24,470 bases of DNA, taken from a virus. Its lineage: Duplodnaviria > Heunggongvirae > Uroviricota > Caudoviricetes. Below, in pieces: positions 634-14,059 of this stretch. The stretch lies in the IMG/VR virus record IMGVR_UViG_2909272501_000001; one strand, written 5' to 3'. The translations under genes and the position numbers were made by a program. Numbering within the stretch: the stretch's first letter is position 1; each line of letters starts with the position of its first letter. The notes under the pieces are model-generated. The model did not search any database. It had not been told where the DNA came from and worked only from the letters and a program-made list of their open reading frames with translations.

Positions 634-675
634 CTGCGCGCATCGCTTGTTTTTTACACAATTAAAAGTAAGAAA

Positions 676-972
676 AAAGTTTTTTTTCGAAAGAACTGTT
701 CACACTGTTCACCTTTCTTTTGTCTCCTTTTATTTCAGAGTGATAGGTGGTGAATAATGGGTGAAGGGTGAACATTCGATTCTTCACCTCCGGCATTCTG
801 CCGGTGTGACTCATACCGGTGATTAATCCCCCATACTGAAATCACACAGGGAGAAAAAAAAGTTTTTTTTGATTTGATTGTTCACACTGTTCACCTTTCG
901 TTTTTCTCTTTTAATTTCAGTGTGATAACGGGTGAATACACGGTGAAGGGTGAACAGTGGATTGTTCACCTT
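676..972. repeat. crr-like cis replication region: two ~115-bp direct repeats (period ~182 bp), each with TGTTCACA/TGTTCACC and GGTGAACA-type octamers
   Basis: Octamers at 698-705, 707-714, 767-774, 781-788 and again at 880-887, 889-896, 949-956, 963-970. Lies immediately downstream of the alpha gene, as crr does in P4. TGTTCACC is the alpha-protein binding octamer of P4 (established knowledge). Confidence 0.7.
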
Positions 973-986
973 CGGGGAATTCAGGG

Positions 987-1013
987 ATAAAAAAAGACCG
1001 GCAGATGCCGGTC
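987..1013 (-). terminator. Rho-independent terminator candidate downstream of alpha
   Basis: Perfect 8-bp inverted repeat GACCGGCA/TGCCGGTC (996-1013) followed on the minus strand by a T-run (plus-strand A-run 989-995), 17 nt after the alpha stop. Confidence 0.55.
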
Positions 1014-1029
1014 AGATGAGTCATGATGG

Positions 1030-3363
1030 TCAGGTTGTCGCAGGGTCGTCACATTTTGGCAGCCAGTCGCCGTAGCTTTCCTCTTTCAGCGTCAGGTTGG
1101 TCTGTATCCCCTGTTTGGTATGGCGCTTCTCGTAATTCAGTCCGTATTCCTTCAGCATCACCGGCAGCCCCAGCCCGAACATTTTCAGACTGAGTACATT
1201 CCGGTAGCCGTTTGCCTCCATGTAGGCCAGATAGGCGTGATAGAGGTATTTACGGTAATTGCGCGGGATGATACTGGCGTTCCCCATATACATGCCGCTG
1301 GTCTGCGGCAGGGTTTCCAGATAGCCGATAAAATCAAACGTCGGGTCGGCATCCCGTTTGATGTTCAGCGCCTCGTCTGAGTTCTGCTGGGACTGAAGCA
1401 GTGACCGGGCGAGCATCGGGTCGCTGAACTTCTGCATCAGGTGACGCACGATGACCGCCAGCTCGCGGGTGATTTTGTCCTTAAGCTGCGGGTCGCGCTC
1501 CTGCGGGGCTATCTGTTCCGGGAAGTGAATAATCACCCGCCGGCGTGACACGCCGCCGCTGCGGTCGGTGAAGCGCATCGGGTTATTGTTCACGGCCAGA
1601 ATTACCGCCGGGATATGCGTGGAGTATGCATCCCGGTATTTCGGGTCAACGGACACCGCATCGCCGCCGGTGATGGCCTTGAGTCCGGCACCGTCGCCGC
1701 TCCATTTTTCCTGGTCCGGCAGGCGTATCAGTGAGAAGCCAGTTAACGCGGCACGTTCACGCGGGGATTCCAGCGTCTCGATGGTGGCCGACGTGGCGTT
1801 ATCCTCCCCGGCCAGCAGGGTGGCTATTTCGGCCATGATACTTTTGCCGCTGCCGCCGGGACCGGTCACCTCCAGAAAGAGCTGCCAGTCGTAGCGGTTT
1901 GCCAGCACCATAAACAGTGCGGCCAGAATCACGTCGCGTTTTTCCGCACGACCACCGGCGGCACGGTCAAGCCAGCGCCAGAACGCGGGGGCGTGGGTTT
2001 CCAGCGTTTCCCCTTCCACCGGCGGGGTGAAATCCACATCGCACAGGGTGCGCATCCAGTGTGACGGACTGTGCGGGTGGAACGTGCCGCTCTGCGTGTC
2101 GAGCACGCCGTTACGAAAGCCAATCAGGCGGCGGGAGGGGGCTTCCTGCTGCGGAATAATCAGCTTCAGGGTGTCCACCACGGAGGCCACCTTCCCGGAG
2201 GAGAACGGCGCGCGCAGACGCTGAAACAGCCCGGCCACATCCCGGGCAAAGTCCTGTGGCGGCAGCACCTTCCAGACACCATTTTCATAGCGGGACAGAA
2301 GCTGGCCGTTGGCATCGACCGCGAGCGCCTCGCCGTAATGCTCATAGATACGCATGGCCTTTTCGCTGGTACTCATGGCGGAAAACTCCGCTTCGCTCAT
2401 GGTGTCGAACGGGCTTTCAGCCGGTGGCCGGATGGCATCATAAATGGCCTTACGGGTGGCTTCCCCGCCGTACTGCGTGAAGGCATCATTCCAGTCACCG
2501 AAGACCGGCGGCAGGGCAACAACACCTTCACACGCATCTGCGGCTGCGGCGGCTTTTGTCTGGCCGTCACCGCTGAGGTCACGGTCAGCAGCAAGGACAA
2601 TCTGACAGGCCGGATGCTTCTGCCGGGCAAGGCTGGCCAGAGAAAGGAGGTTCACGGAAGAAAGCGCCACCATCACCGTTTCACCGGTCAGGTGATGCAC
2701 GGTAAGTGCGGTCGCGTATCCCTCCGCTATCCACAGACGTTTTCCGGCCTGATTCTGTCCTTCAAGGGTGTGACAGGTGCCCCTGACCTGTCCGCCTTTC
2801 AGGGTGCGCTTACGGCCGTCAGCGCTGATTAACTGAAGGTTAACCAGTTCGCCGCTGTCGTCATACAGTGGCACCACAAGGTCACCGGCGCACCAGCTCA
2901 CGCCACCGGCTCTGTGTGTGCCGGTCAGCATCCGGCATTCCCGGCCGGGAAAACCCTTGCGGGTCAGGTAGGCGTTACCGGTTCCGGGACGGGTTTTCGC
3001 CATCAGGGTTTGTGCCAGTGCGGCGGCGTTCTTCCGGGCAGCGTCTGTTTCAGCACCGGCGGCGGCCGTCACTGCCGGGTCAGCCGGGGGCAGACAGCCG
3101 GTCACGGCAGCCACCTTTGCGGCCGCGTCGGACGGGGAAACACCAAACACCTTTTCAACTAGTTTCAGGCCGTCACCGGCACCACACTGATTGCAGTACC
3201 AGGTGCCGCGCCCCTCCCTGTCATCAAAACGGAAGCGGTCACTCCCGCCACAGACCGGACAGGGCTGATGACGGTTTTTCAGCACCTGAATCCCCAGCGC
3301 CGGGAGAATACGCGGCCAGTGGCCGAGCGCATGGCTGACGGTGGCGGTTACGTTCATTTTCAT
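1030..3363 (-). CDS. alpha: P4 alpha-type primase-helicase (replication protein)
   Basis: 777-aa ORF, the length I recall for P4 alpha. N-terminal zinc-binding primase motif CPVCGGSDRFRFDD...WYCNQCG, Walker A GPGGSGKS in the C-terminal half. RBS AAGGAGA before the ATG. Flanked by TGTTCACC iterons at both crr-like and ori-like positions. Confidence 0.9.
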   Translation of the reverse strand: MKMNVTATVSHALGHWPRILPALGIQVLKNRHQPCPVCGGSDRFRFDDREGRGTWYCNQCGAGDGLKLVEKVFGVSPSDAAAKVAAVTGCLPPADPAVTAAAGAETDAARKNAAALAQTLMAKTRPGTGNAYLTRKGFPGRECRMLTGTHRAGGVSWCAGDLVVPLYDDSGELVNLQLISADGRKRTLKGGQVRGTCHTLEGQNQAGKRLWIAEGYATALTVHHLTGETVMVALSSVNLLSLASLARQKHPACQIVLAADRDLSGDGQTKAAAAADACEGVVALPPVFGDWNDAFTQYGGEATRKAIYDAIRPPAESPFDTMSEAEFSAMSTSEKAMRIYEHYGEALAVDANGQLLSRYENGVWKVLPPQDFARDVAGLFQRLRAPFSSGKVASVVDTLKLIIPQQEAPSRRLIGFRNGVLDTQSGTFHPHSPSHWMRTLCDVDFTPPVEGETLETHAPAFWRWLDRAAGGRAEKRDVILAALFMVLANRYDWQLFLEVTGPGGSGKSIMAEIATLLAGEDNATSATIETLESPRERAALTGFSLIRLPDQEKWSGDGAGLKAITGGDAVSVDPKYRDAYSTHIPAVILAVNNNPMRFTDRSGGVSRRRVIIHFPEQIAPQERDPQLKDKITRELAVIVRHLMQKFSDPMLARSLLQSQQNSDEALNIKRDADPTFDFIGYLETLPQTSGMYMGNASIIPRNYRKYLYHAYLAYMEANGYRNVLSLKMFGLGLPVMLKEYGLNYEKRHTKQGIQTNLTLKEESYGDWLPKCDDPATT

Positions 3364-3377
3364 GGTGTTGTTCTCCT

Positions 3378-3698
3378 TCAGTGCAGTACCGGCGCTTTTA
3401 TGTGACGGGCACAGAGTTCATCCATCACAACCAGCCCGAGAAAGGACAGCGACGGCGCGGCCTTCAGGGGGCCGGATTCCATTAAATCTTCCAGCAGGGC
3501 ACAGGCTATCTGACGCCCTTTTTCCTCACCGTGCTGGCGCAGATAAAAGCCCTCCAGCTCAGCGGCGATGGCCGCCTCCAGTGACTCAAGGGTGAGATGC
3601 GGGTAGCGGTGCTGACGTTCGCACACGGTCAGCCAGGCACAGGCGACAGCGCGACGGTAAAGGGCAGCGCGTAAGACGGGCGGTAAGGGTGTTTTCAT
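3378..3698 (-). CDS. Hypothetical protein, 106 aa, immediately upstream of alpha (position and length match what I recall as P4 orf106)
   Basis: ORF with RBS GGGAGGA upstream; stop 15 bp before the alpha start; GC-rich backbone codon usage. Confidence 0.5.
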
Positions 3699-3833
3699 TT
3701 GCTTTCCTCCCTGTGACAGATGACTGCATTCCGTGCCGGTTGCATTAACTGATAAGGCATATCTGCGTCTCCTGAAGACGTGCGTATCCCTGCGCGAATA
3801 CGCACATTTAATTTTTCGGGTGTCGTTTTTTAA

Positions 3834-4289
3834 TTACAGATAATTGCGGTAACTGTTATCCGGGGTGGTTTCCGGGTCAGGCTCCGTGCGGGGAATTTCC
3901 CGCCATTCCCGCGCTACCGGTGCTGCCCGGCTGACCGGAACAGTGTCCTGCGGGTAAATATCCAGATATTTCTCCCGCCATTTCTGTAATTCCGGGTCTC
4001 CGGCCATTTCTTTCAGTACCGCATGCCGGTTTACGGGGCTGCGTTTAAACAGGTCAGGACGGTCACAGGTAAATTCCCGCAGAAAACGCCCCAGCGGGAT
4101 GTCTGTGGTGCGTCCGTCAGCGAGGATACGCACAAGGATACTGAATTTACGGCGGTACGGGTTCCAGACAATGTCCGGGCAGCGGTACGGCATTTCCCAC
4201 GGAATACCGTCTTCCAGAATGCCGACCACGGCCACATCGGGAAAACCGGCAGAACGGTAAATCTCACCGGGCTGGGGAAAATCAAACAT
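3834..4289 (-). CDS. Hypothetical protein, 151 aa if started at the internal ATG at 4289 (track ORF extends to 4331)
   Basis: ATG at 4289-4287 overlaps the stop of the upstream 95-aa gene (ATGTTTGA), indicating translational coupling. Length matches what I recall as P4 orf151. Confidence 0.45.
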   Translation of the reverse strand: MFDFPQPGEIYRSAGFPDVAVVGILEDGIPWEMPYRCPDIVWNPYRRKFSILVRILADGRTTDIPLGRFLREFTCDRPDLFKRSPVNRHAVLKEMAGDPELQKWREKYLDIYPQDTVPVSRAAPVAREWREIPRTEPDPETTPDNSYRNYL

Positions 4290-4569
4290 GCGTCCTGTCT
4301 CCCCGGTCTTTCTGCTGGGCGAGAAAATCACGGCACAGGCCTTTGGCTTTCAGCTCATTCAGCACAAAATCAATATCCTCATTCAGGTAGCTGAAAATAT
4401 GCGGAATGTAGAGCTGATGCAGGCCGGAGAGTTCACGGTGAATCAAATCACCCCCAACAAACTGGGATACGGCGCTGGCGCGGTTGAGCTTATGGTAAGC
4501 CTCAATGCTGAGGTGTTCACGGGCGTCATGACGCGCTGAGACGGTCTGAGGGGCTTTTTTATTACGCAC
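4282..4569 (-). CDS. Hypothetical small protein, 95 aa, GTG start; possibly the epsilon-equivalent of the P4 left operon
   Basis: ORF in operon context. GTG start overlaps the stop of the upstream ORF (GTGCGTAA). The epsilon assignment rests only on length and order, not on recognised sequence. Confidence 0.45.
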
Positions 4570-5161
4570 GGGACACCCCCATCACCGGCAGACGGGCAGC
4601 AAGGGAGAGCACATAGTCACGGACAAGGGAACGGCGGGCACTGCGTTCATCACCGGCGACGGTGCGAAGCATGCAGATACGGGGATGACGGTCTGCGCGA
4701 CGGACAGCCGCAAACACAAAGACAAATTCAGGGTGTGAAGGGGTAAGGGTCGTAGCCATAAGGCAACCTCCGATAACAGCATAAATGACGCTATCGCCGG
4801 AGTTTCCACGCTCGATGGCGATAGCCCAGACGGGGGTGGAAATACCGGCGTTATCGGAAACCGGCCAGCCCGGAGGCTGCCCCGCCTGAGCTACCATTGA
4901 CTCTGCGGTATAATGAGCGGACGCGGGCAGAATGCACGGAGTGCCATTTGCTCGACTGACCACACACCACACCATAATCTGGCGCTCTGTGGCGTTGATT
5001 GCGACACAAAAAAAGACGCATGGCGCGTCATATGTCGCCGATAACATACTCGGGTTTCCACGCCCGGCTGCCGATTTTGCGGCAGCGGAAAAACTATATC
5101 CGCAAATGCCGGAAAAAGGCAAGCCAGAAAAAGGGAGTTTTTGCAGAGCGGGCATCATCAT
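4562..5161 (-). CDS. Uncertain ORF (199 aa from the internal Met; 214 aa on the track) covering the position where P4 carries its kil/eta/cI immunity region
   Basis: Open frame whose stop overlaps the next gene's start, but the translation is low-complexity and several other frames are also open in this GC-rich stretch. May be a misread of small genes and/or an RNA locus. Confidence 0.2.
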
Positions 5162-5424
5162 GCGTCGTACCCCCGTTTGCGTCCGGCAATGCGTCCGGCC
5201 ATCCATGCGGTGACTTCAGAGTGCAGCCAGGCCACATTTTTACCGCCAAGACTCACCTGCGGCGGAAATTCCCCCTTACGGATGAGTTCGTAGATGGTCG
5301 AGCGTGACAGGCCGCACAGGTGCATCACTTCCGGAAGACGCAAAAAACGCTCCTGTGTGATGTCCGGCAGCGGCATCAGTGGCGTCACAGGGGCAGGAGA
5401 CGGGGAAGAAAAAACAGCTTGCAT
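5158..5424 (-). CDS. AlpA/Vis-like small DNA-binding regulator (88 aa)
   Basis: Motif ...[29 protein letters not shown]... is typical of the AlpA/excisionase-like HTH family. RBS GAGG 8 nt upstream of the ATG at 5424. Same position and length as what I recall as P4 orf88 (vis). Confidence 0.65.
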
Positions 5425-5702
5425 CGGGCTACCTCGTTAATGTCCATACAGCACCGGATAAGTCCGTCCGGCTTCGGGTAGCGCTTTATTTTGTGAATAT
5501 TTTTGGCAGACGCAACAGGGGGGATTTGTTCCGGCAGCCTTACAATGGCTGTGTGTTTTTTGCACATCAGCGCCAGATAGCTTTAAAACGCTCTGGAAGG
5601 AGCTGGAAAAAATTATAGTGAAATACAAATTGTTTTTTCTTATTTATTTCAGTTAATTAATAAAAATAAAAAGTAATAAACAGCACAAAAAGTCCATGAA
5701 CG

Positions 5703-5806
5703 GGTGAACAGTGGTGAACAGACGGTGAACAGTCATTACTGCGATTGTTCACCCTTTAACTTACTGTATTACTTATCTTTTTTCTTATGGTGAACAGAGG
5801 TGAACA
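5703..5806. repeat. ori-like iteron cluster: six copies of GGTGAACA/TGTTCACC
   Basis: Octamers at 5703-5710, 5713-5720, 5724-5731, 5746-5753 (inverted), 5789-5796, 5799-5806, inside an AT-rich intergenic region ~4.8 kb from the crr-like repeats. P4 ori1 lies about 4.5 kb from crr and carries the same octamer (established knowledge). Confidence 0.65.
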
Positions 5807-5885
5807 GTAAAATATAAAAAAACAAACAGTAAGCCGGTTTTTCCTGCGACCTTTTCCTGGCTTGCCGGTCTGAGGATGAGTCTCC

Positions 5886-5903
5886 TGTGTCAGGGCTGGC
5901 ACA
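5886..5903 (+). promoter_or_regulatory. TGT-N12-ACA dyad; candidate Ogr/Delta-type activator site of the late promoter upstream of sid
   Basis: TGT (5886-5888), 12 nt, ACA (5901-5903), located ~75-90 bp upstream of the sid ATG. P2/P4 late promoters carry this dyad upstream of the -35 region (established knowledge). Confidence 0.4.
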
Positions 5904-5975
5904 TCTGCAATGCGTCGTGTTGTTGTCCGGTGTACGTCACAATTTTCTCAACCTGAAGTGACGAGGAGCCGGAAA

Positions 5976-6710
5976 ATGTCTGACAACACCATCCCTGAAT
6001 ATCTGCAACCCGCACTGGCACAACTGGAAAAGGCCAGAGCCGCCCACCTTGAGAACGCCCGCCTGATGGATGAGACCGTCACGGCCATTGAACGGGCAGA
6101 GCAGGAAAAAAATGCGCTGACGCAGGCCGACGGAAACGACGCTGACGACTGGCGCACGGCCTTTCGTGCAGCCGGTGGTGTCCTGAGCGACGAGCTGAAA
6201 CAGCGCCACATTGAGCGCGTGGCACGCCGGGAGCTGGTACAGGAATATGACAATCTGGCCGTGGTGCTGAATTTTGAACGCGAACGCCTGAAAGGGGCGT
6301 GTGACAGCACGGCCACCGCCTACCGGAAGGCACATCATCACCTTCTGAGTCTGTATGCAGAGCATGAGCTGGAACACGCCCTGAATGAAACCTGTGAGGC
6401 GCTTGTCCGGGCAATGCATCTGAGCATTCTGGTACAGGAAAATCCGCTCGCCAACACCACCGGGCATCAGGGCTACGTCGCACCCGATAAAGCTGTCATG
6501 CAGCAGGTGAAATCATCGCTGGAACAGAAAATAAAACAGATGCAAATCAGCCTCACCGGCGAGCCGGTTCTCCGGCTGACCGGACTGTCAGCGGCAACAC
6601 TTCCGCACATGGATTATGAGGTGGCAGGCACACCGGCACAGCGCAAGGTGTGGCAGGACAAAATAGACCAGCAGGGAGCAGAGCTTAAGGCCAGAGGACT
6701 GCTGTCATGA
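5976..6710 (+). CDS. sid: Sid, capsid size determination (external scaffold) protein
   Basis: 244 aa from the ATG at 5976 preceded by RBS GAGGAG (track ORF starts earlier at 5910). Length matches recalled P4 Sid. Followed by delta and psu in P4 order. Stop overlaps the delta start (ATGA). Confidence 0.85.
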   Translation: MSDNTIPEYLQPALAQLEKARAAHLENARLMDETVTAIERAEQEKNALTQADGNDADDWRTAFRAAGGVLSDELKQRHIERVARRELVQEYDNLAVVLNFERERLKGACDSTATAYRKAHHHLLSLYAEHELEHALNETCEALVRAMHLSILVQENPLANTTGHQGYVAPDKAVMQQVKSSLEQKIKQMQISLTGEPVLRLTGLSAATLPHMDYEVAGTPAQRKVWQDKIDQQGAELKARGLLS

Positions 6711-7207
6711 TTTACTGCCCGTCGTGTGGACATGTTGCTCACACCCGTCGCGCACATTTCATGGACGATGGCACCAAGATAATGATTGCACAGTGCCGGA
6801 ATATTTATTGCTCTGCGACATTTGAAGCGAGTGAAAGCTTTTTCTCTGACTGTAAAGATTCAGGAATGGAATACATTTCAGGCAAACAGAGATACCGCGA
6901 TTCACTGACGTCAGCCTCCGGCAGTATGAAACGCCCGAAAAGAATGCTTGTTACCGGATATTGTTGTCGGAGATGTAAAGGCCTTGCACTGTCAAGAACA
7001 TCGCGGCGTCTGTCTCAGGAAGTCACCGAGCGTTTTTATGTGTGCACGGATCCGGGCTGTGGTCTGGTGTTTAAAACGCTTCAGACCATCAACCGCTTCA
7101 TTGTCCGCCCGGTCACGCCGGACGAACTGGCAGAAAGCCTGCATGAAAAACAGGAACTGCCGCCAGTACGCTTAAAAACACAATCATATTCGCTGCGTCT
7201 GGAATGA
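6707..7207 (+). CDS. delta: Delta, Ogr-family zinc-finger late transcription activator (tandem Ogr-like domains)
   Basis: 166 aa. Two Cys4 Ogr-type motifs: CPSCGH...CRNIYCSATF and CCRRCKG...CTDPGCGLVF. Confidence 0.85.
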   Translation: MIYCPSCGHVAHTRRAHFMDDGTKIMIAQCRNIYCSATFEASESFFSDCKDSGMEYISGKQRYRDSLTSASGSMKRPKRMLVTGYCCRRCKGLALSRTSRRLSQEVTERFYVCTDPGCGLVFKTLQTINRFIVRPVTPDELAESLHEKQELPPVRLKTQSYSLRLE

Positions 7208-7280
7208 GGGCTGCCGGTTAACACCGGCCGTCGCCGCACACCGTATTTTTATTCTTCAGCATGATGAGAAAGAGATAACG

Positions 7281-7853
7281 ATGGAAAGCACAGCCTTACA
7301 GCAGGCCTTTGACACCTGTCAGAATAACAAAGCAGCATGGCTGCAACGCAAAAATGAGCTGGCAGCGGCCAAACAGGAATATCTGCGGCTTCTGTCAGGA
7401 GAAGGCAGAAACGTCAGCCGCCTGGACGAATTACGCAATATTATCGAAGTCAGAAAATGGCAGGTGAATCAGGCCGCCGGTCGTTATATTCGTTCGCATG
7501 AAGCCGTTCAGCACATCAGCATCCGCGACCGGCTGAATGATTTTATGCAGCAGCACGGCACAGCACTGGCGGCGGCACTGGCACCGGAGCTGATGGGCTA
7601 CAGTGAGCTGACGGCCATTGCCCGAAACTGTGCCATACAGCGTGCCACAGATGCCCTGCGTGAAGCCCTTCTGTCCTGGCTTGCGAAGGGGGAAAAAATT
7701 AATTATTCCGCACAGGATAGCGACATTTTAACGACCATCGGATTCAGGCCTGACGCGGCTTCGGTGGATGACAGCCGTGAAAAATTCACCCCTGCGCAGA
7801 ACATGATTTTTTCGCGTAAAAGTGCGCAACTGGCATCACGTCAGTCTGTGTAA
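7281..7853 (+). CDS. psu: Psu, polarity suppression / capsid decoration protein
   Basis: 190 aa, N-terminus MESTALQQAFDTCQNNKAAWLQRKNELAAA..., last gene of the sid-delta-psu operon. Confidence 0.85.
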   Translation: MESTALQQAFDTCQNNKAAWLQRKNELAAAKQEYLRLLSGEGRNVSRLDELRNIIEVRKWQVNQAAGRYIRSHEAVQHISIRDRLNDFMQQHGTALAAALAPELMGYSELTAIARNCAIQRATDALREALLSWLAKGEKINYSAQDSDILTTIGFRPDAASVDDSREKFTPAQNMIFSRKSAQLASRQSV

Positions 7854-7888
7854 AATTCCCCGAAAATCCGCCCGTTTTTACTGAAAAA

Positions 7889-7972
7889 AGCCATGCATCG
7901 ATAAGGTGCATGGCTTTGCATGCGTTTCCCTGCCTCATTTTCTGCAGACCGCGCCATTCCCGGCGCGGTCTG
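7889..7972 (+). other. Two strong hairpins after psu (7889-7915, 9-bp stem; 7945-7972, 11-bp perfect stem); possible terminator and/or packaging-region structure
   Basis: AGCCATGCA...TGCATGGCT and CAGACCGCGCC...GGCGCGGTCTG inverted repeats. Only the first is followed by a weak T-rich tract. Confidence 0.3.
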
Positions 7973-8017
7973 AGCGTGTCAGTGCAACTGCATTAAAACC
8001 GCCCCGCAAAGCGGGCG

Positions 8018-8036
8018 GGCGTGGCGGGGGGAGCAT
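8018..8036. other. cos-like site (candidate cohesive-end sequence)
   Basis: GGCGTGGCGGGGGGAGCAT matches 15 of 19 positions of the P2/P4 cohesive end as I recall it (GGCGAGGCGGGGAAAGCAC). It sits right after psu, where cos lies in P4, next to a GC-rich imperfect palindrome (7999-8019). Confidence 0.35.
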
Positions 8037-8118
8037 TGCGCGCTAAGGCTGATATTATAATTTTCTTTAATTCTATTTGGTATTTTGGCTTTATTCGTCA
8101 GAAGGAACGTTTAGAAAT

Positions 8119-8146
8119 AGACCACTACAATGGATTGTAGCGGTCT
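8119..8146 (-). terminator. Hairpin terminator candidate ending the int-RT-partner operon
   Basis: 12-bp inverted repeat AGACCACTACAA/TTGTAGCGGTCT (one G-U-compatible mismatch), 4-nt loop, ~10 nt downstream of the partner gene stop, followed by a modest T-rich tract on the minus strand. Confidence 0.4.
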
Positions 8147-8155
8147 GCATGATAT

Positions 8156-8896
8156 CTAGCGTTGCATTTCAGTTACTATGAAATTTTCTTCTGTAATAGA
8201 ATTCATTATCTCAAAGTACAATTCTTCAGGTTGAATAAACGCCAACTCTTTGCAAAGGTTGACAATGGTATCACTATAAGTGATACCCATCCGAGGATTG
8301 AAAAGCTCAAATCTCTTGATGTTTCTTTTGTTTTTTGAGTAAAAGTTTAAAGTGAAATATATTAGCACCTGTCTAAGATCGTAAACACTAAACTTCCTAT
8401 CTCCTGATTTTATTTCCACAAGAACATTTGAATAATAAATATCGCCATATGAATTATTTATTACTCCGCATCCATCGAATTGTGGAGACACTTCAATTTG
8501 GTTTTCCATTCCATATCGAGACAAAATGTTTCTTGCTATTTCCCTTATGGCATTGTACTCAACCATGCTTAAGGGTAGCTTGAAGTTAGAACCGTAAGCG
8601 AACCGCTGTAGATATTCTTTTGTTTTTTCAAAAACAACCTGAAAATCAGCATTATGGAAGATATCATGTGCTGAAAGAATATTTCTGTCTAACGAATCAT
8701 TCTGTATTGCCCTATATAAATTAAATGCGCACTCATTAACAAAGACGTTATTTGACCTATTAGCGCAGTCATCTAGAGGAGGATAAACGTCCTCGATGAG
8801 ACTGCCGTTAATGATGCGTATGAAATTATTAGCATTTGGAAGCAATTGATTCCAAAATGAAGTGAATTTTCGAGAAAACGTTAATTCAGATATCAT
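8156..8896 (-). CDS. Hypothetical 246-aa protein, partner of the reverse transcriptase; possible nuclease-like effector
   Basis: ATG overlaps the RT stop (ATGA at 8893-8896), with RBS GAGGA inside the RT 3' end. Very AT-rich. Segment GDIYYSNVLVEIKSG could be a D...ExK (PD-(D/E)xK-like) core, but this is unverified. Confidence 0.75.
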   Translation of the reverse strand: MISELTFSRKFTSFWNQLLPNANNFIRIINGSLIEDVYPPLDDCANRSNNVFVNECAFNLYRAIQNDSLDRNILSAHDIFHNADFQVVFEKTKEYLQRFAYGSNFKLPLSMVEYNAIREIARNILSRYGMENQIEVSPQFDGCGVINNSYGDIYYSNVLVEIKSGDRKFSVYDLRQVLIYFTLNFYSKNKRNIKRFELFNPRMGITYSDTIVNLCKELAFIQPEELYFEIMNSITEENFIVTEMQR

Positions 8897-10521
8897 AGCG
8901 CATCCTCAAGATTTCTTGCGGTATGCCTTTTACTTGCCCAATCCCTGTAAATCACCTCTACAAAGTTGAATGTTTTCTTATTATGCTCTCTCCAGTGCCG
9001 TCCTTCATCACCTAAGATGTAACTGGAAACGATCAATAGTCTTCTCTGCAACGGATGCATTGCAGAGAAATTTTTTTTGATATCAGAAAGCCATGCGTAA
9101 GAATTAATTTTTGCCATTGACTGTGTAACTATGTTCTTGACTAAGATGCTTTCTGGATTGTTATTGTATATTTCACTAAGGATTAGGGTGGATTTTTCTG
9201 AATTTTCTTTTGAGAGCATTCGGGCTACATAGGCTAAGTTGAGCTCAGTACTCAAAATATATGAATCTTGTTTAATTAGTGCAGTTATTTTATCAAGAAT
9301 AATATCTTTGGTTTCTGTGCTTAATTTTTGCCAGTTGGAGTTAGCTACTTGAATTATAGTTGTAAATATTGGATATAACTCATGCAAGTTATTAAACATT
9401 ACTTTGAAAGCACTACTTATTATTTCATCTGATGTTGCTGAGAATGCCTTTATCAAATGCTTGCTAAAAGATTGGTTAATTTTTGATTTTTGTAACTCAC
9501 TACTCAGCATAGCTAACAAGTCAAAATCTTTTAAAGATTCCTTTATCTCTTCATATTCCTCTATCGCATTTGCTGAGTAAGGATCGAATCTTATAGGAAG
9601 ACTCATAAATTTAGCCTTCATAGGAGATTCTTCATCTTCATCATTACCATGCAACTTAGCTTTAGTTACTGAAAGGAACTCTTCTTTAGTAACAATATTG
9701 GTTTTTTGTTTCTGTAAAGTTAGCCCTTCATTTTCCATCAGTTTTTTACTAAGCAAAGTTAAAATCTTATGAGCATCCTCTCTAGAGTTACAAAAAATAA
9801 CAAAGTCGTCGACATAACGCTTATAGTTGATTCTATTCATAGACAATAATTTATCAATAGAATCTAGAGCTAGTTCTGCTAATATTCTAGAGGCAGGACA
9901 TCCAACTGGTACTCCATATGATTTTGTTTCACTAAATGTCTGTAGTAATTTCTTGATTTTCCCAGAGTAATCTTTATTGGGGTCGACTCTATCTAACGCA
10001 TTTTCTAAACGGTGGTGATAAATACGCGGATAGAAATCTGCTATATCGCATGTAAGTACATACTTTATTTCATCGTTAGAACATTCAGAGATACTGTCTT
10101 CTTGATATTTTCTCCAAGAGATCTCTTTATCAAAAAGAGAACCATCAGCAAGGTTTGGTTTAAAGCGATATGAATAAACCTGCGTTTTAGTAGATCTATT
10201 CCTTTCAATATCATCAGCGATTTTTAAAACTAACCCAAGAAAAAAAGCATTCCAGAATGGATCAATTTGGGTCGCCCACCTGTAACCATAATAACCAATA
10301 CTTGAAAAGCTATTAATTATGTTTGGTGGAATCTCGATCCTTTTATTTTCAAAGTCATTAAATGTTTGCATTAATGCAGTTTTTACTTTCTCCTTATCAT
10401 CTTCAAATAACCGACTTTCAAATGGGTAAGGGAAAATATCTGTATCGCCGTGCTTTATAATATTTTCCAATGCAAGCTCAAAGCAATTTTCTAGTTTACT
10501 ACTATCAAACTCGTTACTCAT
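8893..10521 (-). CDS. Reverse transcriptase, 542 aa, with ~230-aa alpha-helical C-terminal extension; UG/Abi-like defence-associated RT candidate
   Basis: RT motifs in canonical order: LTCDIADFYPRIYHHRL (motif A-like), SYGVPVGCPASRILAELAL (motif B'-like), KRYVDDFVIF (YVDD catalytic motif C), NEGLTLQKQKTNIV (motif D/E-like). RBS AAGGAGA; start overlaps the int stop by 8 nt. No retron-type VTG motif seen. Confidence 0.85.
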   Translation of the reverse strand: MSNEFDSSKLENCFELALENIIKHGDTDIFPYPFESRLFEDDKEKVKTALMQTFNDFENKRIEIPPNIINSFSSIGYYGYRWATQIDPFWNAFFLGLVLKIADDIERNRSTKTQVYSYRFKPNLADGSLFDKEISWRKYQEDSISECSNDEIKYVLTCDIADFYPRIYHHRLENALDRVDPNKDYSGKIKKLLQTFSETKSYGVPVGCPASRILAELALDSIDKLLSMNRINYKRYVDDFVIFCNSREDAHKILTLLSKKLMENEGLTLQKQKTNIVTKEEFLSVTKAKLHGNDEDEESPMKAKFMSLPIRFDPYSANAIEEYEEIKESLKDFDLLAMLSSELQKSKINQSFSKHLIKAFSATSDEIISSAFKVMFNNLHELYPIFTTIIQVANSNWQKLSTETKDIILDKITALIKQDSYILSTELNLAYVARMLSKENSEKSTLILSEIYNNNPESILVKNIVTQSMAKINSYAWLSDIKKNFSAMHPLQRRLLIVSSYILGDEGRHWREHNKKTFNFVEVIYRDWASKRHTARNLEDAL

Positions 10522-11698
10522 TCACATTCTCCTTAATAAAAATATAATCTGAATACCACTGCATCATATCACGGCGTTTATCAATATATTGAGCATGATT
10601 ATACGTACCTCTAATATTATTCTTATCTATATGAGCAAGCTGTATTTCTATCCAAGCCGAATCATATCCTTTTTCGTGGAGGATAGTAGATAAGGAATGT
10701 CGAAATCCATGACCAGTAAGTTTTCCACCATAACCAATACGCTTGATAACTTGGTTAATACTCGCCTCACTCATAGGCTTGTTCGGATCGTTCCGCCCCG
10801 GAAAAACATAACTATACTTCCCTGTCATCATCTTGAGTTCATTTAGCAAATCTAACGCTTGAGTCGACAAAGGCACAAGGTGTGATCTGCGCATTTTCAT
10901 CCTTTCAGCAGGAATTTCCCAAATAGCGTTATCTAAATCAAATTCTGACCATAATGCCGCACGTAATTCGATGGTTCTAACACCTGTAATCATGAGCAAT
11001 TTCGTGGCAATCAGGACAAGCCGACTTCCGGTATATCCGTTTAAGGCGCGAAGAAAATCAGGTATCTCATTAGCCTTTAAGAACGGGAAATGATTTGATT
11101 GGTGTACATTGAGGGCGCTTGAAAGATCCGCAGCAGGGTTAAACTCAGCCCTTCCAGTAGCAATGGCATAGCGGAAAACTTCTGAGCATCGCTGCCGAAC
11201 TTTGCGCATTTTTTCTAATGCACCGCGCTTTTCGATTTTACGCAGCACATTAAGCAGTTCTAGCGGTTTAATCTCTCCCACTGGCCTTGTTCCCACATAA
11301 GGAAAAATGTCGTTCTTAAACGCTTCCATGATGTCTGATGCATATCCCGCCGACCATTTGGTAGACTTCTGTTGATGCCACTCTCTGGCTATCTTTTCGA
11401 AGGCGTTCTCTGACTCTGTTTGCAGAGCCAGCTTTTGCTCTTTTCGAACCTCACTAGGGTTCTTTCCTTCTGCCACAAGTTTTCGAGCTTCATCACGACG
11501 GGAACGAGCATCAGCAAGAGTGATCGTTGGGTAAACACCAAGCGAGATCATTTTGGGTTTACCGGCATAGCGATAACGAAATCGCCAGCTTTTACTTCCA
11601 TTTGGCTCTACAAGTAAAGACAACCCTTGCCCATCCCCAAGTGTATAGGCTTTAGCTTCAGGTTTAGCACGGCGAATCTGCATATCATTTAGGGGCAT
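10514..11698 (-). CDS. int: P4-type (DUF4102-family) tyrosine integrase
   Basis: 394 aa. N-terminal ...RRAKPEAKAYTLGDGQGLSLLVEPNGSKSWRFRYRYAGKPKMISLGVYP... is characteristic of P4/CP4-57-type integrases. Catalytic R...HxxR...H...Y residues (GVRTIEL, GHGFRHSLS, LAHIDKN..RGTYNHAQY). Confidence 0.88.
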   Translation of the reverse strand: MPLNDMQIRRAKPEAKAYTLGDGQGLSLLVEPNGSKSWRFRYRYAGKPKMISLGVYPTITLADARSRRDEARKLVAEGKNPSEVRKEQKLALQTESENAFEKIAREWHQQKSTKWSAGYASDIMEAFKNDIFPYVGTRPVGEIKPLELLNVLRKIEKRGALEKMRKVRQRCSEVFRYAIATGRAEFNPAADLSSALNVHQSNHFPFLKANEIPDFLRALNGYTGSRLVLIATKLLMITGVRTIELRAALWSEFDLDNAIWEIPAERMKMRRSHLVPLSTQALDLLNELKMMTGKYSYVFPGRNDPNKPMSEASINQVIKRIGYGGKLTGHGFRHSLSTILHEKGYDSAWIEIQLAHIDKNNIRGTYNHAQYIDKRRDMMQWYSDYIFIKENVNE

Positions 11699-11881: not shown

Positions 11882-12023
11882 AAAACACTCGATTAATCTC
11901 GTGTTAATGCCATCACCTACGACCATTACTAATTGATTGAATCTGATAGAAAAATTATCATTTTCTATACCTTACAATCAATTTACACATTACAAACGCT
12001 CCGACACTTTAGCCGGAGATTTT

Positions 12024-13301
12024 ATGAGATACAAGCCTAACCAATACTTAATCTGTGATTCTTACGGTAACTACTATTTAAGGATCACGCTGCCTGTGTA
12101 TATGCAGCCCTTTTTTGAAGGAAAAAGGACGTTTGTCAGAAGTCTACACACAAGTAATCTTCGTGTGGCACGTCGAAAGCGTGATCAGATTGCAGATGAA
12201 TACCATTGCTTACGGGAGAGTGTTGCCCCTGTAAACAGCACAATAGAAAACACGCTGGAACTGTTACGCAGTAAGGCTAAATACGCCAAAACAGCTACCA
12301 GAATGCAAGATACAGCGTCTTCGTGTCCGTCATTGCTTAAAATTCTTGAAATCTACCTGACAATTAACAGCACGAAGAAGAAGCCAGCCACTTTAGCTAA
12401 GGCAAGAAAAGCGGTAGAGATGTTTCTCTCCTACCGTAAAAAGCCTGATATTGCATTGCAAGATGTAAGCCGCACCACTGTTACAGGCTGGATTGAACAC
12501 ATGCAAAAAACCCTTTCACAACAATCAATTGCAAATTATATCAGCCCAATGGTCCAGCTATGGGAGTTAGCTTCATCACGTTACCACGATGCGCCAGAAA
12601 GGGCGCTCTCCCCCTGGCGAGGGCATAGGCTTGATGTGGCACAAAGTAGAGAGAGCTACGAGGCATTTTCTAACAAAGAGCTATTGCAGGTGTTGCAAGT
12701 ATTTTCCGGTGATTCAGCAGAAAACAAAGAAATGACGGCTTTGTGTCTTATCGGTTTATATACAGGTATGCGGATCAATGAGATAGCAAGTATCACAATA
12801 GACGATGTGAAAGAGATCGAAGGTGTGCTGTGTTTTGAAATCACACAGGGAAAAACGAAAGCTGCGGCACGTCTTGTGCCTGTGCATAACCTTATCACTC
12901 CGTTGGTGTTGTCGCTGCGTGAAAAGCCTCACAATGGCTTTTTGTTCTATCACGCCAGCATTACAGAACGTGCTGACGGTAAACGCTCTACGTGGCATAC
13001 ACAACGATTTACAAGAGCTAAACGAAAGGCTTTAGGGGAAAAGGGAACAGAAAGGAAAGTGTTTCATTCTCTGAGACACGGAGTAGCACAGCTTCTTGAT
13101 CGAAATCAAATTCCAGAAGACAGGATCGCCCTTCTCCTGGGCCATACACGCGGCAATACAGAAACATTCCGCACATATAGCAAGAATGCAGCTTCTCCAG
13201 TAGAGCTTAAAAAATATATTGAGCTTTTACGCTACCCTGAAATAGAGAAAGGCTTATCAATCAATAAAAAATCAAATTTAAGGCGTAAAACAACGCCATA
13301 G
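12024..13301 (+). CDS. Second tyrosine recombinase/integrase (425 aa from the ATG at 12024; track ORF begins at a TTG at 11937)
   Basis: Catalytic signature GMRINEI (R), FHSLRHGVAQ (HxxR), LLGHT (H), TYSKN (Y). RBS GGAG 5 nt before the ATG. AT-rich. Confidence 0.75.
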   Translation: MRYKPNQYLICDSYGNYYLRITLPVYMQPFFEGKRTFVRSLHTSNLRVARRKRDQIADEYHCLRESVAPVNSTIENTLELLRSKAKYAKTATRMQDTASSCPSLLKILEIYLTINSTKKKPATLAKARKAVEMFLSYRKKPDIALQDVSRTTVTGWIEHMQKTLSQQSIANYISPMVQLWELASSRYHDAPERALSPWRGHRLDVAQSRESYEAFSNKELLQVLQVFSGDSAENKEMTALCLIGLYTGMRINEIASITIDDVKEIEGVLCFEITQGKTKAAARLVPVHNLITPLVLSLREKPHNGFLFYHASITERADGKRSTWHTQRFTRAKRKALGEKGTERKVFHSLRHGVAQLLDRNQIPEDRIALLLGHTRGNTETFRTYSKNAASPVELKKYIELLRYPEIEKGLSINKKSNLRRKTTP

Positions 13302-13381: not shown

Positions 13382-14059
13382 CTATTGTTTAAATACTGGC
13401 GTTACAACGTCTTGCCCTGGGCTTTTTTGATTTTTCTGTTCTGTTGTATTTACCTGCATTTTAACCTGTCCCCCTACAGATTTATTTGGTGCTGTTTTTA
13501 CAGCAATAGCATTAGTGGTGGCCTTAGAGACAAGACGAATTTGCTCAAAATCAAGAGTAAACAATAAGCTTTCGCTTGCTTCTTCTTCGTAAGACATGCC
13601 AACTAACACAACGTTGTCATAATTTTTTAACTCAGTGACAAGTAGGAAAGGTTGGCGACTGTCCATCAACTGATTTAGGTATTCAAGCATAAGCATACGT
13701 CGATTGCCGTTAATTCCCGCATTCTTAATCATATCGGGATTGAGTTTCAATACGGTTTCAGAGATACGCCCCTGTAATGTGAACTTGTTATTCCGTATTT
13801 GAACATGATCACTAACTTCTGATCCTGATTCGACGGCATAGCTTGTAACGTCTGCATTTCGGCTAACTTTCGTCGATTCCACGTTATCAAATGATAATGC
13901 CCGGTAGTCATTGTAAGCAGCATTTGCACCACTGCCGAGGTTAGAGGTAATAATCGCAAAGCCGTTACCCCCTTTAGTTGTTCTACCGTTGCTATCGTTG
14001 CTTGTGCTGTTGATTTTCGCCTCAGTCGGGCGACCAATGGTTAACGGACCCATTGCCAT
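13382..14059 (-). CDS. Hypothetical protein, 225 aa (possible virion-associated protein)
   Basis: ORF with RBS AAGGA; last gene of a co-oriented leftward block that includes capsid-like candidates. No recognisable motif. Confidence 0.45.
   Translation of the reverse strand: MAMGPLTIGRPTEAKINSTSNDSNGRTTKGGNGFAIITSNLGSGANAAYNDYRALSFDNVESTKVSRNADVTSYAVESGSEVSDHVQIRNNKFTLQGRISETVLKLNPDMIKNAGINGNRRMLMLEYLNQLMDSRQPFLLVTELKNYDNVVLVGMSYEEEASESLLFTLDFEQIRLVSKATTNAIAVKTAPNKSVGGQVKMQVNTTEQKNQKSPGQDVVTPVFKQ

Follow-up and report, generated by a model that had tools for sequence, protein, structure and literature searches.

A predicted P4-type RNA immunity region with variant specificity boxes in the viral record IMGVR_UViG_2909272501_000001

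Does the interval at positions 4562-5160 of this viral sequence encode immunity, and if so, does it act through an RNA, as in phage P4, or through the protein of the long open reading frame (ORF) that spans it? The window analyzed here is the whole stretch of 24,470 nucleotides. An earlier note, made from its letters alone, had found that the kil/eta/cI region expected of a P4-type element was not recognizable at this location. Alignment with the P4 cI/seqA/seqB/seqC region, which that note had proposed as a check, overturns the claim: positions 4540-5440 align with P4 at 97% identity over 901 nt without a gap, and all of the elements of the P4 region could be located. A BLAST comparison of positions 4300-5700 with phage records likewise returned P4, at 93% across the full length. 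In addition, the window has minus-strand matches to three Rfam families (C4, isrK and c4-a1b1), each exceeding its gathering score, and the C4 and isrK matches were also obtained on P4 itself at homologous positions. The correspondence of these RNA families with the P4 elements is stated in two papers. Judged on these matches, the interval is very probably, in identity and in class of mechanism, a P4-type RNA immunity region, consisting of a CI antisense RNA, two targets for it and nested eta and kil frames, with variant specificity. Every feature that defines the P4 region at the sequence level is present; for CI processing and premature termination, what is present are the sequence prerequisites.

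The surroundings of the interval follow P4 as well. Positions 673-8017 are collinear with P4 positions 4291-11624 at 97.4% identity, in the order attachment site, alpha, orf106, orf151, epsilon, immunity region, vis, ori, sid, delta, psu and cos. The immunity region thus opens the leftward replication operon, with vis upstream and epsilon, orf151, orf106 and alpha downstream. The upstream gene (5158..5424, minus strand) is a homolog of vis/orf88, an AlpA-type helix-turn-helix regulator or excisionase, that matches Pfam Phage_AlpA (7.3e-21) and aligns with P4 ORF88. It is the first gene of the late leftward transcript, and its TGA stop codon overlaps the first ATG of eta (ATGA). The downstream gene (4282..4569, minus strand) is epsilon, the helper derepression protein, as indicated by Pfam Derepression (7.7e-51) and by the P4 annotation; it is the next gene after kil, in the operon that the immunity RNA would shut off.

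Transcription of the region would start at a predicted PLE-type sigma-70 promoter located upstream of seqA (5093..5122, minus strand; TTGCCT, 18 nt, TATAGT). In the alignment both hexamers are identical to those of P4, where the PLE -10 element is annotated in record X02534. The leader that follows, corresponding to P4 seqA plus its terminator, is covered by the isrK match (5009-5086, minus strand; 74.7 bits), which begins at 5086, 7 nt downstream of PLE, and the c4-a1b1 target motif was found at 5047-5099 (minus strand; 51.5 bits). The first stem of both Rfam models is a 5' leader hairpin (GCUGCCG-CAAAAU-CGGCAGC; 5067..5086, minus strand) that is also present in the minimum-energy fold. This is the GCTGCCG...CGGCAGC repeat to which the earlier note had drawn attention, and its arms lie at 5067-5073 and 5080-5086. 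The upstream bipartite CI target, seqA, was placed at 5038..5061 (minus strand) by complementarity, covariation and Rfam; its box 1 (GUGGAAA, 5061-5055) lies in the loop of a CGGG/CCCG hairpin and its box 2 (GUUAUCGG) at 5045-5038. Between seqA and cI is a predicted intrinsic terminator, GACGCGCCAUGCGUC followed by a U7 tract (5009..5029, minus strand), at the position of P4 t1. It differs from P4 at one base, in the loop, is otherwise intact, and would end a short isrK-like leader RNA (5009-5086).

Downstream of this terminator lies the CI RNA gene itself (4814..4901, minus strand), a full-length match to the C4 antisense RNA family (Rfam RF01695) at 77.9 bits against a gathering score of 45. 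Its folded core (4817-4895; -47.4 kcal/mol, z = -4.65) consists of a 16-bp closing stem, hairpin 1, hairpin 2 and a single-stranded junction. The sequence that would recognize the targets, seqB, is split between two of these parts, with box 2' (CCGAUAAC, 4857-4850) in the loop of hairpin 2 and box 1' (UUUCCAC, 4842-4836) in the junction. The downstream bipartite target, seqC (4769..4809, minus strand), has its box 1 (GUGGAAA) at 4809-4803 and its box 2 (GUUAUCGGA) at 4777-4769, where it overlaps the kil Shine-Dalgarno sequence GGAGG (4771-4767). A permissive Rfam search gave no second c4-a1b1 match at seqC, and the assignment of this target therefore rests on complementarity and covariation.

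The earlier note had also proposed a search for complementary segments within the leader, and this proved informative. The CI segments UCCGAUAAC and UUUCCAC are complementary to GUUAUCGG and GUGGAAA in both targets. A scan of all 24.5 kb located the bipartite target motif GTGGAAAC-N(5-30)-GTTATCGG at exactly two places, 5038-5061 and 4770-4809, both on the minus strand, and its complement, CCGATAAC-N-TTTCCAC, at one, 4836-4857, between the two targets. Neither the target motif nor its complement was found in 100 shuffles.

One could suppose that these elements are a decaying remnant within a cryptic prophage, still recognizable but no longer functional, and the foreign cargo and non-P4 integrase of the element would be in keeping with such a history. 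We regard this as very unlikely. In the window, all 15 of the 15 seqA-CI pairs and all 15 of the 15 CI-seqC pairs are intact, as are the PLE hexamers and, apart from the single loop difference, t1. The alpha, orf106, epsilon, vis, delta and psu ORFs are intact with strong P4 matches, and the intact sid ORF aligns with P4 sid. Furthermore, 94 complete Escherichia coli genomes carry a 401-nt stretch of the immunity region at 99% identity or more (100% in strain ECCRA-119, NZ_CP029242, for example), and 89 complete genomes have a CI gene with 0-1 mismatch in 88 nt, likewise 99% identity or more.

What, then, is the long ORF? The ORF of 199 or 214 amino acids reported previously does exist, on the minus strand. 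The 214-residue version (4562..5206) starts from an in-frame ATG at 5206, and the 199-residue version (4562..5161) from the ATGATGATG triplet, whose first ATG is at 5161 rather than 5160 and whose next two ATGs give 198 or 197 residues. The description of this ORF as dubious did not survive comparison with P4, in which it is eta, with kil nested at its end. It spans PLE, seqA, t1, the CI gene and seqC, and it shares 176 of its 199 residues with the P4 protein. Residues 22-146 match Pfam Phage_ASH (8.5e-24), and residues 146-193 an NCBIfam Icd-like family (2.8e-20). Across related loci the frame is open in 66 of 69 despite several indels, which are multiples of three or mutually compensating. 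The kil frame (4562..4759, minus strand) comprises the last 65 codons of eta; its ATG (4759-4757) is placed seven nt after GGAGG, it has 65 codons in 67 of the 69 loci, and it scores 76.1 bits against a cut-off of 25 with NCBIfam NF033153 (1.6e-21), which identifies the predicted product as a member of the Icd-like cell-division inhibitor family. The identity of the ORF is settled, at the level of sequence, by the Pfam and NCBIfam matches together with the 97% identity to P4.

These assignments agree with what is known of eta and kil in P4. The full frame there is reportedly eta (197-199 residues, with three adjacent ATGs) and its last 65 codons kil, which is said to be the first gene translated from PLE transcripts. 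Translation of eta is reported to take place only from an upstream late promoter and to prevent termination. As to the remark that other frames are also open, it is correct for the opposite strand (4932..5213, 93 residues, and 4999..5307, 102 residues) and for a nested 75-residue ORF with a GTG start, but not for the two alternative sense frames, which are interrupted by 3 and 4 stop codons over the 400 nt that precede kil.

A long, open and conserved frame raises the possibility that immunity is exerted by its protein and that the RNA-family matches are incidental. P4 records do list the C-terminal 137 codons of this ORF as the cI/ash gene product, with the RefSeq label 'transcriptional repressor', and the Phage_ASH match and the conservation of the frame could be read in the same way. 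We nevertheless give this reading hardly any credence. Compensation is seen at the nucleotide level among three segments, with G-U pairs on one strand only, and the compensatory changes alter amino acids freely, so that eta differs from P4 at 23 residues, clustered at the boxes. Moreover, the Phage_ASH match coincides with the stretch from seqA through t1 and CI to seqC, and most of the conservation captured by this protein family is therefore explained by the RNA elements. In P4, the immunity factor is an untranslated RNA (PMC4825925). The earlier note had taken a protein homolog with conserved domains, combined with the lack of a stable small RNA, to argue against RNA-encoded immunity. The first of these was found, in the family matches given above, but such matches do not count against an RNA because protein frame and RNA elements overlap in P4. 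The long ORF is a genuine reading frame, and its sequence also serves as RNA elements; the suggestion in the same note that immunity may be encoded by an RNA, and that its two hairpins may be relevant, was borne out, as both hairpins belong to the RNA system.

By homology with P4, a mechanism can be proposed for the window; what was computed here is the elements themselves, their identity with P4, how they pair and covary, and the overlap between box 2 of seqC and the ribosome-binding site of kil. Constitutive transcription from PLE (5122-5093) would run leftward through the leader, that is, through seqA, t1, the CI RNA gene and seqC, and from this untranslated transcript a tRNA-like CI RNA of about 70-80 nt would be excised. 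In P4, CI processing depends on RNase P and PNPase, and the terminators in the lysogen are t1, t4 and the Rho-dependent timm. The CI RNA would act in trans as an antisense RNA, its hairpin-loop box 2' and junction box 1' pairing with seqA and seqC on nascent transcripts. Pairing with seqA would increase termination at t1, resulting in autoregulation of CI, and pairing with seqC would hide the kil ribosome-binding site and prevent kil translation. With kil untranslated, transcription would end before epsilon and alpha, and the replication genes would therefore be off in the lysogen. Transcripts from the late promoter would have the whole interval translated as eta and, as a consequence, would read through. 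This scheme corresponds to that described for P4, where processing of an untranslated transcript yields the CI RNA and premature termination results from its pairing with seqA upstream and seqC downstream (PMC4825925).

The differences from P4 are concentrated in the elements that would carry out this recognition. Specifically, the 901-nt alignment contains 55 differences, 35 of which fall within the 107 nt of seqA, the CI loop and junction, and seqC (Fisher p = 1e-21), comprising 8 in seqA, 7 in the CI loop or junction and 20 in the seqC block. Within CI, the stems are unchanged and all 7 differences map to loop 2 or the junction. The CI loop (box 2') reads UCCUGUGAA in P4 and UCCGAUAAC in the window, and the CI junction (box 1') reads UUCUCAC in P4 and UUUCCAC in the window. 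The targets have changed to match, from UUCACAGG to GUUAUCGG for box 2 and from GUGAGAA to GUGGAAA for box 1. In short form, the alleles are GGAAA against GAGAA of P4 for box 1, and GAUAAC against UGUGAA for box 2. Box 1 thus differs from P4 at 2 of 7 positions, and box 2 at 5 of 8-9.

These matched base changes in CI and in both targets suggest that the element is probably heteroimmune to P4, forming a separate immunity group. Homoimmunity with P4 would call for the same specificity bases in seqB, seqA and seqC, and these bases differ. There is precedent for such a division in the same RNA family, since P4 and phiR73 are heteroimmune, as are P1 and P7. The phiR73 region reportedly shares the architecture of P4, and a handful of bases in its CI RNA and targets is said to determine specificity.

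The competing view is that the changes in the boxes are tolerated, so that the element has the same immunity as P4 and the two CI RNAs repress each other's transcripts. Several observations lean this way. Five of the seven box 1 positions are kept, the flanks of the boxes still pair, cross duplexes with P4 are predicted at -21 to -29 kcal/mol, and a few natural loci (L028 and L070) carry a seqA that is mismatched to their own CI. However, box 2 has changed at more than half of its positions, and in seqC it lies on the kil ribosome-binding site. The cognate duplexes are predicted at -33.6 kcal/mol for seqA and -36.6 kcal/mol for seqC, that is, 8-13 kcal/mol better than the crosses, by crude estimates in which intramolecular structure is ignored. 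That both boxes agree at each of three separate sites implies that cognate pairing has been selected for. Of 36 distinct loci, 34 retain the pairing of CI with seqC, and the other two have small deletions in seqC box 2. Finally, the heteroimmunity of P4 and phiR73 is said to stem from few changes in the same RNA segment. Shared immunity with P4 consequently appears unlikely. Partial cross-immunity between the two is possible, because box 1 differs at only two positions and the conserved flanks still pair in the crosses, alongside the heteroimmunity that we favor.

To place the window among its relatives, we collected 73 IMG/VR loci with the CI stem pattern and 81 genome loci with the leader pattern, 76 of which were extractable. 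The three-box layout was present in 69 of the 76, namely the enterobacterial ones. Six matches to the 19-nt leader pattern in non-enterobacterial metagenome-assembled genomes (Bacteroidota, Acidobacteriota and others) were set aside as chance, as they had no downstream CI or seqC, and in one Mangrovibacter locus (L153) the three-box layout was not found. In an alignment of 36 distinct sequences, pairing held in 98.5% of seqA-CI cells, against 42-53% in slid controls, and 9 of the 15 pairs showed changes on both sides. The corresponding values for CI-seqC in the same 36 sequences were 99.8%, 37-54% and 8 of 15 pairs. Not every pairing is essential, given the mismatched seqA of L028 and L070. 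These seqA mismatches, together with the near-universal matching of CI and seqC, fit the dispensability of t1 and seqA for lysogeny that has reportedly been established in P4, whose terminators t1 and t4 are said to have been analyzed in the same work, as well as a central role for seqC.

Complete E. coli genomes carry the CI backbone in 883 of 5426 cases, and the region examined here is a new allele of a well-known kind that is common in this species. The 139 enterobacterial loci have three alleles of box 1 (GGAAA, GAGAA and AGGAA) and about 12 of box 2, which are combined in at least 41 ways; the combination of the window was present in 7 of the 139. On the DNA, the boxes are interleaved in the order A1-A2-B2-B1-C1-C2. 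A swap of one module would therefore take several crossovers or repeated triple compensatory mutation. Six same-genome pairs of satellites have differing alleles (L005/L041, L076/L139, L081/L123, L104/L135, L097/L120 and L085/L146) and one pair does not (L046/L050), although random pairs would mostly differ too, given the number of combinations.

Together, these observations raise a tentative and somewhat doubtful possibility, that P4-type immunity constitutes a two-module RNA 'address code' whose combinations are kept matched at seqA, CI and seqC, supplemented by a switch in the hairpin at 4790-4825. If such a code exists, it would be a sign that, in the competition between satellites, diversifying selection strongly favors new immunity groups.

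The hairpin in question is the first of the two that had been listed in the earlier note, there placed at about 4789-4825. It lies at 4790..4825 (minus strand), with arms GCTATCGCC (4790-4798) and GGCGATAGC (4817-4825) that are complementary at 9 of 9 positions and 18 nt apart, and as a minus-strand RNA it has a predicted energy of -18.8 kcal/mol (z = -2.4). In it, the 3' arm of CI plus its overhang (GCUAUCGCC) pairs with the downstream GGCGAUAGC, leaving seqC box 1 in the loop. The hairpin is mutually exclusive with the base, that is, the outer part, of the far more stable 16-bp CI closing stem. We examined both structures in 89 distinct sequences from E. coli, Klebsiella, Citrobacter, Enterobacter, Erwinia, Pantoea, Serratia, Yersinia, Rahnella, Edwardsiella and others. 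The CI structure was paired in 99.8% of cells and the hairpin in 99.2%, compared with 24-55% in slid controls for the latter. Four of its pairs have changed on both sides (for example, GCUACCACC/GGUGGUAGC), and the one-sided changes give G-U pairs on the sense strand. Because its pairing is conserved and covaries across these 89 sequences, the hairpin is a real, conserved feature at the RNA level.

Two candidate roles for this hairpin were considered and set aside. Its identification as the P4 t4 terminator is unsupported, as the U-rich tract that follows it is found in E. coli copies and not in other genera, and as it competes with the much more stable CI stem. A protein-binding DNA palindrome is disfavored by the restriction of one-sided changes to sense-strand G-U pairs. 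The published P4 model is not known to account for the hairpin, which may represent an undescribed processing or termination switch. In the literature searched, which lay outside the primary P4 and phiR73 papers, we found no description of a combinatorial two-box system or of the alternative hairpin; a prior description in those papers is possible.

These findings indicate that the window holds an intact, textbook P4 RNA immunity module in which nothing is missing or replaced. They also illustrate how a track of ORFs taken alone mislabels such a locus: PGAP places no RNA feature here and names the 199-residue frame 'host cell division inhibitor Icd-like protein', and Pfam Phage_ASH largely models translated RNA elements. 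The few bases that differ from P4 are those expected to set specificity, and they may be used to predict which satellites co-reside and which exclude each other. Such predictions are relevant because these satellites carry anti-phage cargo, here the reverse transcriptase DRT8. Of possible interest to specialists are the combinatorial alleles of the two boxes, which agree across three interleaved sites, and the alternative hairpin, which is conserved.

Among known systems, the closest is the P4 immunity region itself, with which the element shares order, spacing and sequence, the nested 65-residue kil, an eta of 197-199 residues with its ATGATGATG start, and the flanking genes. It differs from P4 in the specificity boxes of CI, seqA and seqC, which have changed in a compensatory way, as well as in its integrase, which is not that of P4, and in its DRT8 cargo. 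The retronphage phiR73 reportedly has the same architecture and the same few-base specificity that we propose for the element; its cargo is retron Ec73, whereas that of the element is DRT8.

The immI system of P1 and P7 (c4, a1b1, a2b2, icd and ant) is related through the Rfam C4 family, clan CL00128 and the c4-a1b1 target motif. In immI, as here, the RNA gene lies between two bipartite targets, the downstream target covers the ribosome-binding site of a small Icd-like ORF, and translation of that ORF is needed for downstream expression. In P1, however, the gene under control encodes an antirepressor and a protein, C1, acts as main repressor, whereas in P4-type elements the RNA itself is the immunity factor and controls replication genes through transcription termination. 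A further relative is the IsrK/STnc1160 locus of the Salmonella prophage Gifsy-1, to which the element is linked by the isrK match of its leader. IsrK has been described as a structural homolog of the P4 seqA RNA that is followed by a processed RNA analogous to CI (PMC4825925). Phages of the phiKO2 type show 77% identity to part of the region. Gifsy-1 and the N15/phiKO2-type phages are lambdoid or linear-plasmid prophages, and in them the module acts on a gene of antirepressor type (anrP or antC) rather than on satellite replication.

Across 139 related immunity loci fetched from IMG/VR and genomes (range L003-L156), the two specificity segments carried by each target of the CI immunity RNA assort combinatorially, with three alleles of box 1 and about 12 of box 2 occurring in at least 41 combinations. 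The boxes of seqA, CI and seqC are interleaved along the DNA in the order A1-A2-B2-B1-C1-C2 (window 4769-5061), so that exchange of a single module would require several crossovers or triple compensatory mutation. Complete E. coli genomes carry up to three CI genes with the backbone seen in the window. Locus pairs from one genome mostly differ in their box alleles (for example L005/L041 from IMG/VR), a difference that is also expected by chance given the high allele diversity; L046/L050, also from IMG/VR and from one genome, is the sole such pair among the fetched loci that has both box alleles in common.

The match between CI and seqC was kept in 34 of 36 distinct loci, and mismatch in seqA was tolerated. 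Specifically, seqA is mismatched to its own CI in L028 and L070, deletions of 1-2 nt lie in seqC box 2 of L027 and L037, and the U-tract of the t1 terminator contains an additional T in L021; the eta frame is disrupted in L037 and L021. These five loci represent immunity regions that have recombined or degenerated in nature. The 19-nt leader pattern was also matched exactly in non-enterobacterial MAGs, assigned to Bacteroidota, Acidobacteriota and others (L077, L078, L088, L102, L127, L140 and L144). Neither CI nor seqC was found downstream of the match in any of these loci; the matches are attributed to chance and do not indicate a wider host range.

Existing labels on the eta frame present annotation problems. 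The P4 RefSeq record (NC_001609, 8168-8584) still applies the label 'transcriptional repressor' to a 137-aa 'cI gene product', and PGAP names the 199-aa frame of E. coli ECCRA-119 (NZ_CP029242, 3752209-3752808) 'host cell division inhibitor Icd-like protein', leaving the CI RNA unannotated. The seqA-t1-CI-seqC RNA elements coincide with the Pfam match Phage_ASH (eta residues 22-146; frame at window 4562-5161, minus strand).

A TGT-N12-ACA dyad, TGTTCCGGCAGCCTTACA (5527-5544), precedes the start codon of vis by approximately 100 nt. This arrangement is the consensus site of Ogr/Delta activators at P2/P4 late promoters; the dyad would therefore mark the late leftward promoter driving vis-eta. 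Short tandem direct repeats surround the -35 element of the constitutive promoter PLE (GCCGGAAAAAGG/GCCAGAAAAAGG, 5108-5134), where they encode an amino-acid repeat in eta, and a separate set lies at the 3' end of vis (TGCGTCCGGCAA/TGCGTCCGGCCA, 5178-5201). Both sets are identical in P4.

The satellite integrase (394 aa; 10514-11698, minus strand) contains arm-binding and integrase domains; a megablast comparison yielded no match between it and P4 int. The window, including 1-672, lacks tRNA genes; in an E. coli genome with the same element (401-nt immunity region 100% identical), the element adjoins a LysR-family pseudogene and paoD. Directly after the satellite integrase are a second, divergent integrase (11937-13301, plus strand) and then a Dit-like tail protein (13382-14059, minus strand), an arrangement suggestive of two mobile elements in tandem.

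Between psu/cos and the satellite integrase is a variable cargo slot (8156-10521, minus strand). It encodes a 542-aa reverse transcriptase (PADLOC Drt8 match, 4.9e-166) and an adjoining 246-aa RT-associated PD-(D/E)XK protein (model match, 5.5e-69), which make up a defence-associated reverse transcriptase system. Whereas P4 carries gop, beta and cII in this slot, the window has the Drt8-type system in their place.
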